Shown here: positions 4,362 through 39,919 of the stretch, piece by piece | Position numbering within the stretch: position 1 is the stretch's first letter | How the letters are laid out: every line of letters starts with the position of its first letter | DNA from: a virus | DNA length: 64,000 nt | IMG/VR virus record: IMGVR_UViG_3300021168_000001 | Span: 39,270 to 103,269 of that record | Direction: 5' to 3' (one strand) | Position numbers and translations under genes: made by a program | The notes under the pieces: model-generated | Told to the model about the DNA's origin: nothing | Databases searched by the model: none | The model's input: the letters and a program-made list of their open reading frames with translations, nothing else

Positions 4362-7300
4362 GCTTTCACCGCTCCGGCTGGTCTGTTGAGGTTTGCCGTC
4401 GCGAGCCAGTACTTGAAGTCATCGATTTGCATCGGCGAGATGTCCATCATCACTTCATCGGCACGGTGATGAGCTTTAGGATAGGCTCGTTTCACCTCGC
4501 CAAGCGTATCGAATCCCAGGAACACCTTGTGCTCATCGAATCCCTTAGAAGTATGCAGATGGCGCTGGTCAACGATATAAACCCAATCGCTCTCAGGGTC
4601 CGGCCCGATGTAACAATCGAGCGAATCACCATCGGCTCCGGTGAACCCTTCGATATATCCATAGTGTGCCGGCATCCGGACCGACCATCCTTTGCCCGAT
4701 CGAATATGGCCCTTGGGTGTCTCGACCACACACGTAAGACCATGAATGTTGAACTCCATCACGCCCGGGTCATCGGCGTCGGCGGCGCGCCCTGGCTCGT
4801 CCATTTCAAGCGGATCGAAGCCAAGCATGTCGATCACCGACCGCGGCGTGCGCTCGAGCTCTGCATCATCATCGACGTCGTCGAAGTCGCCTTCGTATTG
4901 GCGCCAGTCGTCATCGGTCCGCTGCGCCGATCCATAGTGCACTTCGGGCAATTCCACACCAAATGCCTTATCGAAGGCCTCTTTGAAGAAATTGAGTTTG
5001 GTATCTCCGGCCCTCGCCGGCTCGGCGCTGCCCTCGCTCGCAGATTTCCATCCCGAGAAGATCTGCGGAGGAATATAGGACTGCAACGCGACGATTGGTG
5101 TGTTGCCGAGTTTCTCGGAAACAGCCTTCGCAACCTCCATTACCGCTTTCTTGTACTCCTTCGGATTGGTCGGGGCTTTCACTTTCTCGACAAGGCCGTT
5201 CGCGGTCTCGGCCGCCAGCGCGGTGCGAAAGTCCTTTGTCTTGAAGCCGCCGTGATCGAGGTTGTCCTTCGTGAAGTCGCGCAGGCTCGCATCGCTCACG
5301 GACGGAAAGAGATTGCCTTTCTCACCGGCCTTGGCACGCAGCTCTTTCAGCATCGATCCAAGCTGTGCGTCCTCGACCGGCAACGATATAGTCACGCCCT
5401 TCTTCCCAACGAAGCGCAGTCGCACGCTGTTGCCAAGCTGCCATACATGATGCCCCTGCAAGGTCGACGCACCATAGGCCTTTACCGCGCCTCCCGTGTC
5501 CGAATCGCTGCCGGGCCGGATCCCAGTCTTGCGCACCAGGTACATGCAGTCGGCATGATCCCGTACCTTGGCGTCCTTACTCTTGCGGAAGCCGTCCAGC
5601 TGCTTGTCGATCAGGCTCATGTTCTTTTGCAGTGCCTGGACGCGCTGGAACTTCAGGTCCGCCTGGCTGTTCTTGAACGTAGGCGAGTAGACATATTGCT
5701 TGCGACCTTTCGAATCGAGACCGGTTGCCAACAGGTCGGCCTTTGGCATCGGCGAGATTCGAACATCCTTCCACGCTGGCGGGATCTTCAGCGACTTGGC
5801 ATGCTCCGGCCAGTCCTCGCGACTGGAGTAGGACTGAAGGTGCGCGGTCTTTGTCGATTCCTCGCCCCCCGAACCGCCAGTGCTTTCTTTATCGGGATCG
5901 CTGGACCCTTCGCCACCACCGGGCTCCTCACGCGGTCCCATGCCCTTCCGCCGACGCTCCCAGGCCTTCTTTGAAGCTTTTGAATCATCGGTCGCCCTAG
6001 CCACCGCAGATAGCGCTCGCTTCTCGGCGCGCTGCGGCCCGAACAGCTTCTGCATCGTCGCAAGGCGCTTGTCGTCCTGCTCCCCTTCAGGATCGCCGCC
6101 CGGCTCTTTGCCGCTCTCGCCCTTGCTCCCTTGTCCCTCTTCTTCTCCACCCTCGCCTGTAAGCGATTCAAGACCACCCTCGCCGCCGCCCTGCTCGCCC
6201 ATGCTCATGACGTCATCGGACAGAGCCGCGATCCGCTCATCGGTAAGATTCGTTCCGAAGCCAGTTGCGTCGGAGGCCTGCTTCACCTCTTCGGCGCCAG
6301 CCCGCGGCGACATGATGCCGAGGTTGATGGCGACCGCCACCGTATCAAGAGTGGCCTTGGCAAGCTCCGACTTTTCCTTTTCATCCAATACGCGGACGGA
6401 TGGGAAGTTGAGGTCCAGATCGTCGGGGATCTCACCGAGCTCCGACATGCAAAGCACCGGGTACAGTTTCTCGAGCTGTGGCCGCAGTTCAACGTCCTGG
6501 TCGGTGGCGATCTTCTCCTCGTAGATTCGCTCATCGGCATCGTTCGATTGCCCAAGTCCGCTGATCGTGCGCCCCCAAAGACGCGTGACCGGGATTTGTG
6601 TCGCACCTGAGATGTCCAACTGAAACTGCTGATAAACATCGCTGAGGCCGGTGAAGGTATAGTTCACGGCCTCGATCCCGCCATCGGCCGGAAGCGGCAC
6701 CAGGCTCTGGTTTGACAGCAAGTGGTTCAGGGTTGTCATGCGCTGCTGAAACTGTATCGCGGCTTGCTGGTTCATGCCGACGCCAGAAAGAACCTTTGCC
6801 AGTTCCGGAAACTTCATACCAAGAATGCAGGCGCGGAACGTGAGCGATAGTATGTTCCAACTCATGTTGTCGCGCTTGCGAATCTCTTCATAGGCCGGCT
6901 CGATCACCGATATGCCCCAGTAAGTCTGCGCCTCATACTCCGGCGTCGGCACCTCTGGCCCGCTGAAGCGCAGTATTCGCGACGAGTGCACTAGAAAACT
7001 CTCGGCATCCGGCGCAGTGACCCGGTACATCTCCGGCTTGTTGAAGTCGGTCGGCCGATTGATGTCCGTGCAGATATCGCCGTGCGGCTGAATGCCTGTC
7101 CAGCGATCGAACGGGATCAGGCCTTTGTAATCGCCGACGCCGATCGTGTCAGGATCCAGCGGCTCCTCGAGATTATCCTCTTGACCATCGATCACCATGA
7201 GTGCGCCGCCGCCCCCGAAAAGCCTCGCCCACTTCAGCGCACGGAGAAGCGTCGATTTGGTCTGCGTGCGGCGAATCTTGCGATCGATCTTTGTCAGATC

Positions 7301-25464: not shown

Positions 25465-25794
25465 TTACACCGCAGCCGGTTCGTTTTTGTCTTCCGTGGT
25501 GATCGCACCGCCAAGAGCTTCGAGCTCCTTGCGCAGATCGGCACGCCGCTCCTCCGCAGTGCGGAGGCCGCGAAGCTCAGCGTGGATCTTCTGAATGCGA
25601 TGAGCCTTGTCAGCTTCGACCAACGTGGAAACCTGGGTGCGGATCGCAACGACCTTATCTTCAAACCACTTCGGGACCGGTGCTTCCAGTTCACCGAATT
25701 CGGTCTTAACAAGCCGCGCGAGCGCAGACAGTTCGACGAGTTCGTCGAGGCTGGCACCGTTCTTGTTGAAGTTTCTGATTGCTTCAAGCAGCAT
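25465..25794 (-). CDS. Small helical/coiled-coil protein coupled to the Ro60-like gene
   Basis: Overlaps the Ro60-like stop; AGGAGG SD. Confidence 0.65.
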   Translation of the reverse strand: MLLEAIRNFNKNGASLDELVELSALARLVKTEFGELEAPVPKWFEDKVVAIRTQVSTLVEADKAHRIQKIHAELRGLRTAEERRADLRKELEALGGAITTEDKNEPAAV

Positions 25795-27319
25795 TGACTG
25801 GTACCTCCTTTCTCAGATTTTTGAGAACATCATCCAACGTCAGAAGCCTGGAACCGAGCACCTCATCGATCAAACTGTAACGCGAAACGCGCATCGTCTG
25901 CACGATGTTGGGCAGGCTATACATGTCGGCCGTTTGTGACCGCATGTCGAATTCCTGCATTTCGATTCCGGCATTGCGCATCGTCAAGGCGAGATCGCGA
26001 TCATGAAGGGCCCTCACCGAACCCTGGAACCGGTAGAAGTACACTGGAGGTTCCTTATCGAGCATCTTACAAAGACTCTGATAGCGATCAACAAAGAACG
26101 GTGGCGTATTCTCCTGGCCATCCGACACCACCGCGATTCCATCCACCGGAAGCTTCTTGTCCATCGCATATTGGACACCGCACCCAATCGACGTTCCGCC
26201 ACCGATGAGTACATGGCGGGTGTCCGCAAGGATCTGCCCATAGTCCTTGCCTGTTACATCGAAGTAACGCGGCGAGGAGTCAAAGAAGATCAGGCTCACC
26301 TTCCCCTTGACGAACTTCGCTAGAGTGGCGGCCATAGTCCGCGCCACCTCGATACACTGCGACATGCTAGGGCTGCTGTCGCCGAGTACGAGCCAGTCCC
26401 CATCGATGCCGCCCAGCTTCTCGATCTGGCGCTCCTGGAGGCTGACCAACTTTTCCTTAAGGCCTTCGTCCTCGACAACTTCGGCCGCTCGCGTGGTCTT
26501 GAGCATATTCGCAGTGCTCTTCGATGCGCGCTTCAATCCCTCCTCGAAGGCACCACGTAGCGCCGGGTTGGTCTTGACACCACACCGCTCGAGCAGCTTT
26601 GTGTTCGTCACCAGTTCCGAAGGCGACATCTGCGTGATCAGTGCATGCAACAGGTCGGTATCCTTGGCCTTTTCTTCAAGCGCGCCCATTGCGATCAGGA
26701 ATGGGATCCTGCTCGTGATGATCGCGCTGGCTGCATCGGCAGAAGACATCTGCTTAAGGCCTGCGACCACCTCGAAAATCGAACCGGCCGGAAGCCCAGG
26801 ACGCGATGCTTCATTCTTGTCGCGATTCTTCCCATGGTGCAATACCCTCGAAACGTAATCGCTGCCGGCCTTCACATGAGCGAGCGTATAGAGCGATCGC
26901 AGCGGACGGCGGTGCTGCAGCGCGGTGCGGTCCCAGCGGCCACGGTCAGCTTCGAGATTGCGCAGGTAGGTCTCGATGATATTGCCCAGACGATTCACGA
27001 ATCCCTTCGGCCGCACCGCCAGCGCAAAGCGATAAGCTCGAACGAGCTCGCGCGGGCCGAGCGCAGCGAAGTGCGCAAGACTATTCTCGATGAATTCGGG
27101 AACCGCTGTGAATTGTGGCACCGTCAGCGATACGACTGGCAGAGCGACCTTAGAGTCACGCACATCACCCTTCACCATGTTCCAACTAATGAGGTGCGCC
27201 ATGAACTCCGGTTCCAGCTGCGCGGCCTGTTGGCCGACTGGCATGTACTCCTGGAGATTGCCATGTGGTGACTTGGCCAACTCCGACAAAATCTTATTCT
27301 TTGTGAATTGGGATTCCAT
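25784..27319 (-). CDS. Ro60/TROVE-like protein with C-terminal VWA domain
   Basis: Helical N-terminal region (DSKVALP, LYTLAHVK, QMSPSELVTN) plus VWA MIDAS motif GDSSPSM, GGTSIG and VVSDGQEN. Lies next to Y-RNA-like elements. Start taken at MESQF (27319). Confidence 0.7.
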   Translation of the reverse strand: MESQFTKNKILSELAKSPHGNLQEYMPVGQQAAQLEPEFMAHLISWNMVKGDVRDSKVALPVVSLTVPQFTAVPEFIENSLAHFAALGPRELVRAYRFALAVRPKGFVNRLGNIIETYLRNLEADRGRWDRTALQHRRPLRSLYTLAHVKAGSDYVSRVLHHGKNRDKNEASRPGLPAGSIFEVVAGLKQMSSADAASAIITSRIPFLIAMGALEEKAKDTDLLHALITQMSPSELVTNTKLLERCGVKTNPALRGAFEEGLKRASKSTANMLKTTRAAEVVEDEGLKEKLVSLQERQIEKLGGIDGDWLVLGDSSPSMSQCIEVARTMAATLAKFVKGKVSLIFFDSSPRYFDVTGKDYGQILADTRHVLIGGGTSIGCGVQYAMDKKLPVDGIAVVSDGQENTPPFFVDRYQSLCKMLDKEPPVYFYRFQGSVRALHDRDLALTMRNAGIEMQEFDMRSQTADMYSLPNIVQTMRVSRYSLIDEVLGSRLLTLDDVLKNLRKEVPVNAA

Positions 27320-27361
27320 TTTCTGACCACCTTCGGTTTTAACTTTGAAACGTGAAAACAG

Positions 27362-27430
27362 CCAGAGGCCTCCGGCTCTGACTCCCGAAAGAGTCTGAGT
27401 AATCATTGCCTCCTTCGAGCCTGCCTCTGG
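27362..27430 (-). ncRNA. Structured RNA element between the HNH and Ro60-like genes
   Basis: CCAGAGGC/GCCTCTGG terminal stem, GGCTC/GAGCC inner stem and GACTCT-TTCG-GGAGTC hairpin. Confidence 0.45.
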
Positions 27431-27433
27431 AAC

Positions 27434-28063
27434 TTATGGGAGCTTGCGAGTTTCGAGATGATGCAGCAGCATGGAATAACTCAGATGCTTGATCCTGCAC
27501 CATTCTTCCGGGTCCATCGCGCCTTTTTCTTTGTTACATTTTCGGCAGGCCGTCAGGTAATTGCTCGTGTCGTTGAAGCCACCTAACTCGAGTGGCCGGA
27601 AGTGATCGATCGTGAGAGGCGCCTTGCCCATCTTTACATCGCAATACATGCACTTCGAGCCATCAGCCAGCCACACCTTCTGCTGGATGAAGCCGCTAAT
27701 CTCATAGCGCACTTTGCGGTGGAAGGCCTTCGCCGGCATCACGAGAATCTCTGGATCGTCGGAGCGCTGCAGCCAGTCGGTCCACTCTTCAGCGGTCAGA
27801 CCGTACACAAGGACGTTCGGACCGGCCGCAACACCGTTGCCCCAAAGCGGTGCGCCAGGCAGCATGAGCACGGCCTGCGCGCCTTCGCCGCCGACCACGA
27901 GACCTTCGATTTTGAGGAGAGATCCGACATCACCATGGAGTGCCGGGCGGTGATGCAGCTGGAGTTCGTAGAACCGGTCATTGCTTGCCACAATGACTCC
28001 TTTCAGTTTTTGCCCGAAGATCGGCCTGGTGTTTTGATTTCTAGCATCGAGCCTAATGGTCAT
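27434..28063 (-). CDS. HNH nuclease-domain protein with a ~110 aa unique N-terminal domain
   Basis: CMYC...LTIDHFRPLELGG...NYLTACRKCNKEKG. Confidence 0.8.
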   Translation of the reverse strand: MTIRLDARNQNTRPIFGQKLKGVIVASNDRFYELQLHHRPALHGDVGSLLKIEGLVVGGEGAQAVLMLPGAPLWGNGVAAGPNVLVYGLTAEEWTDWLQRSDDPEILVMPAKAFHRKVRYEISGFIQQKVWLADGSKCMYCDVKMGKAPLTIDHFRPLELGGFNDTSNYLTACRKCNKEKGAMDPEEWCRIKHLSYSMLLHHLETRKLP

Positions 28064-28088
28064 TCGACCTTTTCGGCCCTAGCCGGAA

Positions 28089-28162
28089 GCCCCGATAAAG
28101 GTTTTTGTGGCGGGGCTTCCACTTTTAGGGTGGAAAATCATGTAACCAATCCAGTATCGGGC
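28089..28162 (-). ncRNA. Y-RNA-like element 4 (short, divergent)
   Basis: CCCGATA/TATCGGG stem, CTGGATTGGTTACATG motif and TTCCAC/GTGGAA hairpin. Confidence 0.55.
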
Positions 28163-28170
28163 AAATTTTC

Positions 28171-28238
28171 TGAGGCTAGATCGTCCGGCTGTTCACTGAT
28201 CCTTCGCAAGAGTCATGTAAGCCGTACAGTAAGCCCCA
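28171..28238 (-). ncRNA. Y-RNA-like element 3 (minimal)
   Basis: TGGGGCT/AGCCTCA stem (a G.U pair fixes the strand), with CTGTACGGCTTACATG and CAGCCGGACGATCT motifs. Confidence 0.7.
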
Positions 28239-28247
28239 AGCTTTGAA

Positions 28248-28404
28248 TGGGCGACCCAGGAGTCGAACCTGGATGAATCAGCCTTTCGGCTGGTCCTGCA
28301 TGTATGCAACCGAGTGGGCAGCTTTCGCGGCCAGATCCGTCTGCAATCGGCTCTGGTTTCCCAGAACCGTTTGTTCGCTGCGTTTGCCATTCCGCCAGTC
28401 GCCC
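28248..28404 (-). ncRNA. tRNA-shaped RNA with an expanded anticodon/variable region
   Basis: Perfect acceptor stem GGGCGAC/GTCGCCC plus A, D-arm GCGGAATGGCAAACGC, T-arm CCAGG-TTCGACT-CCTGG and an ~105 nt multi-hairpin interior. Confidence 0.75.
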
Positions 28405-28410
28405 AAAACT

Positions 28411-28580
28411 TGATCCCCGTCTCTCCGGAGCGTCACCGCTTGTTCATTGTGGCATTGCGGTTACTGAGCAGATAGGCTTGCGCCCGCTGTACCATGTGTC
28501 CGATGAACTCGGAAGGAGCGCCTACGGGTAATACTCACTCCTGATTCGTTTTCAAGCTCCCCAGCAGCGCTACTGGATCA
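28411..28580 (-). ncRNA. Unassigned structured RNA candidate
   Basis: TGATCC/GGATCA closing stem, AGCG-CTGCT / AGCGG-TGA-CGCT bulged helix and CCG-GAGAGA-CGG hairpin. Confidence 0.45.
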
Positions 28581-28616
28581 TAGCCGACCCGCGAATAAAC
28601 ATCGCCTCGATTTGAA

Positions 28617-28750
28617 TTTCCCTTTGCAGATCGTTCGGCAATTCATTGATTGTGAGAATCGGGTTCGAACCGATTACCTACTGATTTGACTGTCAGTTGC
28701 TCTTCCAAATGAGCTACCTCGCATGTACGCCACCCAGTAGCAAAGGGAAA
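28617..28750 (-). ncRNA. Y-RNA-like element 2 carrying a full non-permuted tRNA-like cloverleaf (28651-28723)
   Basis: 11-bp stem TTTCCCTTTGC/GCAAAGGGAAA; CTGGGTGGCGTACATG and GCCGAACGATCT motifs; D, anticodon and T arms in canonical order. Confidence 0.8.
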
Positions 28751-28757
28751 ACTTGAA

Positions 28758-28892
28758 TTGAGGCTAGATCGGTCGGCTGTGTTGCTTTTCAATGGGCGAT
28801 GCTCTACCAACTGAGCTACTTTCCCTTGCGGGACAGGCTGGATTCGAACCAGCGACCAACGCCGTACATGTAAGCCATCCAGTGAGCCTCAA
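28758..28892 (-). ncRNA. YrlA-like Y RNA with circularly permuted tRNA domain
   Basis: TTGAGGCT/AGCCTCAA stem. The T-arm GCTGG-TTCGAAT-CCAGC comes before a GCAA-closed acceptor-like stem and the D-arm GCTC-AGTTGGTA-GAGC. Confidence 0.85.
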
Positions 28893-28922
28893 ACCTGAAA
28901 CTCTGTCTTTCGATGCTTGTAC

Positions 28923-28952
28923 AGCCTAGCACCATCCCATTGGGAATTTCAA
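28923..28952 (-). promoter_or_regulatory. Sigma70-type promoter of the RNA array/Ro operon with a palindrome in the spacer
   Basis: TTGAAA-18 nt-TAGGCT with extended TGn; TCCCAATGGGA in the spacer (28935-28945). Confidence 0.6.
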
Positions 28953-28966
28953 GCCCGGGCCTGATT

Positions 28967-29428
28967 TTATTTTTCCAATCTCATCAGCCGTTCGAATGTC
29001 GGCTTGCGCTTCGCTGGAAAACGCTGAAACGGATGAACCATTTGCCCACCGGCCCTCTCAGCGCTACGGAAGAGTGTCATGCGCATCTCGGGCTCGAGCG
29101 CCCACCACCGCTCCGCCCAAACCCGGCTTCGCTGCGCGGTGATTCCCATCTCATGACACCACCGAGTTGGCAGGATATGAACCGCGAGCACCAACCAGGT
29201 CCTCTCGTGTTTGTTGCCGATGTTCGACTGGAGAAGGTCGCCGCGCTTGGGCCGCGGATCGCCTGGCGGTTGGTGGTAGACCGTTTTCACTTCAGATTTT
29301 GCCCTTCTGGCGCCGCCGCTGGCGCTCGAACAACGCGCGGTCAGCAAACATAATCGCACCGTGATAAGACGGATCCTTTTGAGCGGAAACAGCCAAAATG
29401 ATCGAAGACCAGAACTGTTCGTCCTCAT
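28967..29428 (-). CDS. Hypothetical protein (true start probably ~29290)
   Basis: C-terminal ~105 aa VKTVYHQPPG... looks like the real coding part. Confidence 0.4.
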   Translation of the reverse strand: MRTNSSGLRSFWLFPLKRIRLITVRLCLLTARCSSASGGARRAKSEVKTVYHQPPGDPRPKRGDLLQSNIGNKHERTWLVLAVHILPTRWCHEMGITAQRSRVWAERWWALEPEMRMTLFRSAERAGGQMVHPFQRFPAKRKPTFERLMRLEK

Positions 29429-39200: not shown

Positions 39201-39919
39201 AACGATTCTACACAGATCGACTCGTGAAGCGCTTATTCGGCGGCTACGATCACTGCGTATGCGGTGAAGGTGATTGCCCTTTTCACATCGCCTATTGCGC
39301 CTGTGGCTGCGAGGAACCGGTAAATTATCGACGCAATGGAACTCCAAATATTTGGGTGCGTGGCCATGAACGGCGCGCCAAACGATGGACAGATGAACGT
39401 CGGCAAAGCTTTTCTGCGAAAAAGAAAGGTTGCCGCGGAATCTGGAAGGGCAAGACACTGCCCGAGTCTGCCCGCGAGAACATGCGCAAGGCTCGTGTTG
39501 GAATGACGCTGTCGCCTGAACATCGACACAATATTGGTCTCAGCATCACCGGTCGCAAATTCTCAGAAGCGACTCTGGATAAATTACGCGCTCACCGCCA
39601 TACGCCAGAGACAATCGCAAAGATGAAAGGCCGCACCGGATCACGCTGCCCAGCATGGAAAGGTGGAATTTCCTCCATCAATAACGCACTTCGCAACTCA
39701 ACGGAAGCGCGCCAGTGGAAACGAGAAGTGTTTCGTCGCGATAACTTCACCTGCCAGGATTGTGGTGCGAAAAGCTCTCGCGGCCACAAGGTCCACATCC
39801 AGGCTCACCATTTGCAAAGTTGGTCAGAGTTTCCAGCACTTCGCTTTGAAGTGAGCAACGGTCTCACGCTCTGCCATCTCTGCCATGGCATTCGACACGG
39901 GCGCAAATTGCGTCCATAA
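39197..39919 (+). CDS. NUMOD3-repeat HNH endonuclease
   Basis: CACGC, NUMOD3-like repeats, VFRRDNFTCQDCG...AHH...NGLTLCHLCH. Confidence 0.85.
   Translation: MKRFYTDRLVKRLFGGYDHCVCGEGDCPFHIAYCACGCEEPVNYRRNGTPNIWVRGHERRAKRWTDERRQSFSAKKKGCRGIWKGKTLPESARENMRKARVGMTLSPEHRHNIGLSITGRKFSEATLDKLRAHRHTPETIAKMKGRTGSRCPAWKGGISSINNALRNSTEARQWKREVFRRDNFTCQDCGAKSSRGHKVHIQAHHLQSWSEFPALRFEVSNGLTLCHLCHGIRHGRKLRP

Follow-up and report, generated by a model that had tools for sequence, protein, structure and literature searches.

The Ro60-like gene and the adjacent RNA unit

The 64,000 nucleotides analyzed here, hereafter called the window, are positions 39,270 to 103,269 of the IMG/VR virus record IMGVR_UViG_3300021168_000001 and belong to the complete genome of a soil phage, 103,269 bp long with direct terminal repeats and a GC content of 55%. 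All positions given below are those of the window. Its minus strand carries a gene for a Ro60-like protein (TROVE and VWA) of 540 amino acids (25784-27406), and 1.2 kb upstream of this gene, on the same strand, resides a 134-nt RNA unit (28617-28750) in which a handle typical of Y RNAs bears a complete tRNA mimic as cargo. The original prediction, made from the nucleotide sequence, had described this unit as a Y-like RNA into which an entire tRNA cloverleaf with an 8-nt anticodon loop is nested through the acceptor stem.

The Ro60-like protein is the presumed partner of the RNA. An AlphaFold model based on 31 homologues has a mean pLDDT of 80, and when this model was ranked against the PDB by structure comparison, all 12 matches listed among the top 13 were Ro60 structures, each aligned over about 510 columns. 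They stem from Thermus phage phiLo, human, Deinococcus and Xenopus, the best being those from phiLo (9kop, 9l5y). In Pfam, the protein yields a weak VWA match and nothing else. According to the model, the 540-residue protein folds as a Ro60 protein. Its homologues number in the hundreds, share about 55% identity with it and are mostly found on contigs of around 100 kb.

A complete cloverleaf nested in a Y-type handle

The 5' and 3' ends of the unit form an outer stem, in which the 5' strand UUUCCCUUUGC (28740-28750, minus strand as for all features of the unit) pairs perfectly over 11 bp with the 3' strand GCAAAGGGAAA (28617-28627); the stem is backed by sequence, fold and covariation in relatives. 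It is followed by an internal loop, the 5' side of which, UACUGGGU (28732-28739), has the family consensus YACUG and is conserved in both alignments of related units (A2 and A3, see below), and by a middle stem of 4 bp formed by GGCG (28728-28731) and UGCC (28637-28640). The latter is part of the 3' handle segment UGCC-GAACGAUCU (28628-28640), with GAACGAUCU as the 3' side of the internal loop and a family consensus ending in CGACUU. This segment contains GCCGAACG, a literal match to the Ro motif GNCGAAN0-1G, though on the 3' strand. Next to the middle stem comes the motif UACAUG (28722-28727), whose final two bases already are the start of the acceptor stem. The unit thus has what characterizes Y RNAs: a stem formed by the two ends, a conserved internal loop (YACUG/CGAYYU) and a separate effector module.

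The effector module is a tRNA cloverleaf (28650-28723) with acceptor, D, anticodon, variable and T arms in canonical order and a discriminator A. The acceptor stem UGCGAGG/UCUCACA comprises seven positions, including one C-A mismatch and one G-U pair. The D arm reads GCUC-AUUUGGAA-GAGC and the T arm AUCGG-UUCGAAC-CCGAU. In the anticodon arm (28680-28697), a 5-bp stem, ACUGA/UCAGU, carries the 8-nt loop CAGUCAAA (28685-28692), which has an A at its second position and hence lacks U33. The D, anticodon and T stems are all perfectly paired, and the tertiary nucleotides U8, A14, G18, G19, G53, T54, U55, C56, A58 and C61 are all present. The acceptor stem is followed by A-UCA instead of A-CCA, and a single-stranded 3' linker without CCA, UCAAUGAAU (28641-28649), leads back into the handle. 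The letters, the arms, their nesting in the Y-like stem, the loop length, A33, the single acceptor mismatch and the missing CCA are all as originally described.

Minimum free energy and centroid folds agree on the outer stem, the middle stem and the nested cloverleaf. The thermodynamic z-score of the unit taken alone is weak (-1.69). Weak values of this kind are usual for RNAs of tRNA size. A pairing of GGGU with AUCU, suggested by the window's own fold, was rejected: only 45.7% of it is paired in relatives, and the segment is the conserved internal loop. ARAGORN finds a single tRNA in the window, at 28650-28723 on the minus strand, and reports it as 'tRNA-???' with the anticodon gtca, as had been foreseen. 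The Rfam tRNA model (RF00005) recognizes the same cloverleaf with 45.7 bits against a cut-off of 29 (E value of 1.5e-6 for the 64-kb window). A 7-nt anticodon loop with U33 and a purine at position 37, for which the unit was inspected as a mark of tRNAs, is not present. The body of the cloverleaf resembles tRNAs of the Thr(UGU) and Lys(CUU) type, with which it shares the D arm and the anticodon stem.

At permissive thresholds, no Rfam family besides tRNA matched the unit, and a blastn search against a phage collection returned only short tRNA-like matches. Two other readings were discarded. Outer stems that covary and are different from unit to unit speak against a mobile element with terminal inverted repeats, and an integration site was rejected, the genome having direct terminal repeats.

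A class of whole-tRNA units in related phages

We gathered 78 related viral loci, 67 of them distinct, leaving out the closest Ro60 relatives (about 60% identity). The regions upstream of their Ro60-like genes contain arrays of three to nine units that are built alike, in the order variable outer stem, YACUG, short variable stem, UACAUG, cargo, stem complement, CGACUU and complement of the outer stem. These arrays usually come after blocks of 6-10 ordinary, CCA-encoding tRNA genes (e.g., loci L001-L004). In the window phage, the Ro60-like gene and its array of Y-type RNAs persist without a phage tRNA set.

By pattern search, we obtained 35 distinct units in which UACAUG precedes the D arm, the complete anticodon arm and the T arm of a tRNA, arranged in canonical order. 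UACAUG is found in all 35 aligned members, but it also served to find them; it was regained independently by a covariance model, R1, that was built from the 34 relatives with the window left out. This model matches the window unit at 28620-28748 over its full length (model positions 1-125) with 93.2 bits and an E value of 4e-21, which is the sole strong match in the 64 kb, and places it mid-table among the class members. The observation is therefore real and statistically solid. R1 matches of at least 70 bits are present in 52 of the 67 distinct loci, all on the strand of the Ro60-like gene; they lie upstream of this gene in 51 loci and downstream in L075 only. Thus, the whole-tRNA-on-handle unit is a standard component of these arrays and not an accident of the window genome. 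L075 is a distant relative; two whole-tRNA units (5364-6131) follow its Ro60-like gene.

These results bear on the idea that the cloverleaf is a decaying tRNA pseudogene, the remnant of a lost tRNA array. The window phage encodes no other tRNA, compared with 6-10 at the relatives' locus, and the aberrant loop and the acceptor mismatch would suit decay. Such a remnant would not be expected to align from end to end, together with its handle, to a class that is kept in at least 52 related loci, nor to retain perfectly paired D, anticodon and T stems together with an intact set of tertiary nucleotides. We regard a pseudogene as scarcely credible.

When viral contigs were scanned with a pattern for the anticodon stem of the window unit, all matches were ordinary tRNAs for Thr, Met and Lys, each with a 7-nt loop. 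A pattern scan of metagenomes added four more handle units (L225, L231, L262 and L314), the rest being ordinary Lys and Thr tRNAs after TACATG. None of the four is close to the window unit, and none has an 8-nt loop.

Covariation and the hypervariable anticodon triplet

Covariation was computed on a plain MAFFT alignment of 35 units (A2). The outer stem shows compensatory changes at nine of nine pairs and the middle stem, which is 78% paired, at four of four. Within the cloverleaf, each of the five pairs of the anticodon stem shows compensatory changes; this stem and the D stem are both 100% paired, the T stem 97.7%. The overall covariation score amounts to 0.552, while controls reach 0.176 when shuffled and no more than 0.151 when slid, and in a model-fitted alignment 92.7% of the positions concerned are paired. 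The original prediction had named a cloverleaf that is processed and charged as an ordinary tRNA, with a dispensable flanking stem, as the finding that would speak against it; the covariation of this stem across more than 50 related phages contradicts dispensability. Class-wide, A14, G19, T54, A58 and C61 are invariant, and U8, G18, G53, U55 and C56 are at least 90% conserved, which argues for a real L-shaped fold.

About half of the members form an acceptor of 4-7 bp that uses the end of UACAUG and is followed by an A-rich linker, in some cases with A-CCA; the other members have an acceptor of only 3-5 bp, followed by a GNRA-capped hairpin. A discriminator A plus CCA directly after the 3' strand of the acceptor, inside the handle, occurs in L064 (2532-2656), L076 (878-1001), L077 (3318-3434) and L075 (5368-5484). 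An A-A mismatch at pair 1-72 is seen in L076 and L063.

The anticodon loop is 7 nt long in 51 of the 56 strongest members; 8 nt are found in the window and in L063, 6 nt in L038 and L018, and 5 nt in L078. Among 32 seven-nucleotide loops, U33 is present in 29, a purine at position 37 in 30 and A38 in 28. Positions 34-36, in turn, hold 17 different triplets, with an entropy of 1.7-1.9 bits per position. The 8-nt loop, A33 and the GUC triplet of the window unit, highlighted in the original prediction, do exist, but they are peculiar to this phage: the U33-less 8-nt loop is an outlier and a local peculiarity, not a class-defining feature. Likewise, the letters GUC are there, while their reading as an Asp-like anticodon is arbitrary, GUCA and UCA being equally readable in an 8-nt loop.

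The main rival to a partner-binding function enters at this point. The tRNA fold might serve as a stabilizer only, a compact body that withstands nucleases and whose partnerless anticodon loop drifts neutrally. A stabilizing role of the tRNA-like fold was indeed raised for YrlA by Chen et al. 2014 (PMC4201824), and the 17 triplets, the existence of 5-, 6- and 8-nt loops and the loss of U33 in the window are all compatible with drift. Against neutral drift, variation is confined to positions 34-36 while the frame of the loop around them is kept, and the anticodon stem is fully paired with compensatory changes. Moreover, units of the YrlA type in the same arrays have no anticodon arm, so stability does not require one. 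A mere stabilizer is thus unlikely in our view, though more deserving of attention than the other rivals.

Decoding need and transcription

No other tRNA is encoded in the genome of the window phage. TGA is its main stop codon and ends 61 of 95 long open frames. Neighboring open frames in the same reading frame are split by TAA 10 times, by TAG nine times and by TGA seven times; in this split-frame search for stop-codon recoding, no single stop was in excess, and with such near-equal numbers nothing suggests reassignment of a stop codon. Coding density from stop to stop under alternative codes proved uninformative in a genome with 55% GC, and the split-frame test was used instead. As far as the sequence shows, the unit is not needed in decoding.

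A working, if unusual, phage tRNA would be excised by RNase P and a 3' nuclease, receive CCA and read, for instance, a quadruplet (+1) or UGA, with the flanks as mere precursor structure. The score above the Rfam tRNA cut-off, the seven-position acceptor and the discriminator A are in line with this, as are the large arrays of normal tRNAs at the relatives' locus, the A-CCA of some class members and the example of M. smegmatis YrlA, which RNase P cleaves and which acquires CCA in vivo (PMC4201824). It is at odds with the 8-nt loop lacking U33 and with the C-A mismatch in the acceptor, and also with the lack of an encoded CCA, which the normal tRNAs of the relatives do encode. In addition, a full 5' acceptor strand is missing from about half of the class, conservation and covariation extend to the flanking stems and motifs, and neither the distribution of split frames nor the use of TGA signals recoding. 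We therefore consider a decoding function very improbable.

Contigs from four soil metatranscriptome studies cover 28071-28728, and one of them, with more than 99% identity, spans 28449-28728 and thus the cloverleaf and its 3' handle. This gives a weak hint of transcription, as the contigs are assemblies and may include carried-over DNA. Pieces from RNA runs at 28801-28859 with foreign letters between them were dismissed as tRNAs of other organisms. The promoter originally proposed at 28923-28952 has a -10 element that is weak by eye, and a simple sigma-70 scan detected no promoter within 27300-29200.

Comparison with known Y RNAs

Chen et al. 2014 nominated Y RNAs by their location within 4 kb of a Ro60 homologue on the same strand (PMC4201824), and the window unit likewise lies within this distance of a Ro60 homologue and on its strand. 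It further resembles YrlA (RF02553) in that its 5' and 3' ends form a stem and that the effector is a tRNA mimic in which the D and T arms and the tertiary nucleotides are conserved. The mimic itself is built differently. In YrlA, it is a circular permutation (T arm, closed acceptor hairpin, D arm) that is joined via the anticodon stem and has no anticodon loop (10.1101/312249; PMC4201824), whereas the window unit has its arms in canonical order, is joined via the acceptor stem and exposes an anticodon loop. YrlA carries the motif GNCGAAN0-1G near its 5' end (PMC4201824); the 5' strand of the window unit instead reads UACUG...UACAUG, with GCCGAACG confined to the 3' strand. The Rfam YrlA model, the gathering cut-off of which is 69 bits, gives no match to 28617-28750 even at E values up to 10. 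By topology, anticodon loop, 5' motif and Rfam, the unit is not a member of YrlA.

The closest precedent for the topology is Yrn1 of D. radiodurans. In the published model, a D-like arm, an anticodon-like arm with a 6-nt loop and a T arm are oriented to the Ro-binding stem as they are here, but a variable arm is missing and the D arm, where dihydrouridine was looked for in vain, is doubtful; the authors consider Yrn1 an independent lineage (PMC4201824). By description, the order of the arms relative to the Ro-binding stem is the same as in the window unit, so that Yrn1 is a partial precedent; unlike the window unit, Yrn1 does not score as a tRNA. A topology opposite to that of YrlA was thus correctly predicted but is not wholly unprecedented.

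YrlA of M. smegmatis has an acceptor-like stem of seven base pairs, is cleaved by RNase P and carries CCA in vivo, and the halves stay bound to Rsr (PMC4201824). tRNA enzymes can therefore act on Y RNAs, and by analogy processing of the window unit by such enzymes is possible, with its seven-position acceptor as the site concerned. The consequence would differ: the cut in M. smegmatis opens the closed hairpin of a permuted mimic, while here it would nick the junction between handle and cargo.

A phage-encoded Ro60 protein with Y-like RNAs just upstream is also known from Thermus phage phiLo, in which Yrl1 and Yrl2 are stem-bulge-stem RNAs with a CGAA motif; in the available text of that report, no tRNA-like cargo is described for them (PMC12135203). 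With ordinary phage tRNAs, the window unit shares the cloverleaf, but it differs from them by the absence of CCA, the 8-nt loop, the location in a covarying handle and the lack of a visible decoding need. Phage tRNAs with altered anticodon loops have been proposed to escape host anticodon nucleases. No report of Y-type RNAs that are scored as complete tRNAs or that show hypervariable anticodon triplets came up in the literature searched. The element is best filed as a handle-borne whole-tRNA mimic, new within the Ro60/Y RNA kind.

Proposed function

Taken together, we consider it probable, though well short of certain, that the unit is a Ro60-partner RNA of the Y type with a whole tRNA mimic as effector module, that it is not a decoding tRNA and that it may act as bait or tether. 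The array of Y-type RNAs lies on the same strand as the Ro60-like gene, just upstream of it and with no open reading frame between the units, and is therefore probably co-transcribed with it. The handle, i.e. the variable outer stem, the YACUG/CGAYYU loop, the covarying middle stem and UACAUG, presumably constitutes the docking site for Ro60. The cargo is a complete tRNA mimic, and since it is joined via its acceptor stem, the L-shaped body and the free anticodon loop should point away from the protein. While the handle would hold Ro60, the cargo would engage host factors that recognize tRNA, as other Y RNAs are thought to do. For Y RNA cargo, a partner is known in D. radiodurans, where it is PNPase, and none is established for YrlA (PMC4201824; 10.1101/312249). 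As the triplet varies freely within a kept loop frame, the partner is probably a reader of the anticodon loop, such as a tRNA-targeting defense nuclease or a modification enzyme, for which the RNA might act as a decoy or tether. The bait function had been suggested from the start, and the hypervariable triplet in a conserved frame renders it more plausible.

A more far-reaching version of this proposal, which is conceivable but rather doubtful, views the particle of Ro60 and Y RNA as a programmable anticodon display. Each lineage would adjust the triplet so as to mimic whichever host tRNA is under attack by a local defense nuclease or another anticodon-reading enzyme, and the particle would either soak up this enzyme or bring Ro60 and an associated exonuclease or repair activity to it. 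The 8-nt loop of the window would then be an uncleavable or tightly binding variant, or a decayed one.

Several points weigh against a Ro60-bound bait or tether. The Pfam TROVE model does not match the 540-residue protein, binding of the RNA by Ro60 is deduced from synteny, and Rfam does not assign the unit to YrlA. The 5' strand of the handle lacks the published YrlA motif, and the lone literal match, on the 3' strand, is not conserved in relatives. Five of the 56 strongest members depart from the loop length of 7 nt (5 to 8 nt), and the member in the window lacks U33; here, the loop may be under weak constraint. The A-CCA members with a seven-position acceptor (L064, L076, L077 and L075) could, judging from their sequences, be matured to chargeable tRNAs. 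Finally, the RNA runs consist of assembled contigs, the ends of which (28583 in two studies, 28728 in one) are readable neither as RNA ends nor as an indication of the strand, and the ends to which the RNA would be processed are conjectural. The core of the original prediction, a stem-closed Y-like RNA next to Ro60 that carries a canonical-order tRNA attached through the acceptor stem, is supported nonetheless.

The role of the tRNA-like domain of bacterial Y RNAs has been a standing question since 2014. The locus offers a natural experiment in this respect: one handle and one Ro60 gene are combined with a cargo that is either a permuted tRNA without anticodon loop or a whole tRNA, and a third form of cargo is a tRNA with the handle in place of the anticodon loop. 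Variation in the whole-tRNA class is limited to the triplet, which directs experiments to anticodon-reading partners and to the conflict between phage and host over tRNAs, and dozens of natural variants are on hand for testing. For annotation, the lesson is that tRNA finders label such Ro60-partner RNAs as odd tRNAs or pseudo-tRNAs.

Other units of the array and the HNH gene

Directly 5' of the whole-tRNA unit, the neighboring unit (28758-28892, minus strand) combines the same handle with a permuted cargo of the YrlA type (T arm, closed acceptor hairpin, D arm), as identified by Rfam and by the fold of its outer stem. The Rfam YrlA match covers 28770-28878 with 40.5 bits (E value of 7e-7), which is under the 69-bit cut-off. 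The handle common to both neighbors reads YACUGG..GGCKUACAUG on the 5' side and GCCGAMCGAUCU on the 3' side, and more handle-bearing units continue to about 28009.

One of these (28248-28404, minus strand; counterpart in L002 at 2460-2600) shows the third topology of tRNA and handle in the array. Here a T arm is combined with an open acceptor of 7 bp, GGGCGAC/GTCGCCC, and the place of the anticodon loop is taken by the 3' strand of the handle, a GAAA-closed outer stem and the 5' strand of the handle ending in UACAUG. The L002 counterpart ends with ...CCCGCCACCA. Three different tRNA/handle topologies in one array fit the earlier suggestion that Y RNAs exchange tRNA modules.

Between the array and the Ro60-like gene, a gene on the minus strand (27434-27991) encodes a protein of 185 amino acids with a C-terminal HNH motif (Pfam HNH) and an N-terminal domain that has no assignment. 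It shares 65% identity with its counterpart in L002, compared with 52% for Ro60, and in relatives (L009, L011, L013 and L024) it is located inside or directly after the RNA arrays. It is more conserved than Ro60, and by its position it looks like a part of the Ro60/RNA system rather than a stray homing endonuclease. The ATG start listed for this gene at 28063 overlaps the last RNA unit; a GTG at 27991, preceded by AAAGGAG, is the more likely start.

A further unit of about 170 nt without handle or tRNA arms lies between array members (28404-28583, minus strand). RNA-library contigs from two different soil studies both end at 28583, one of them spanning exactly 28404-28583, and this segment may be a discrete stable RNA.
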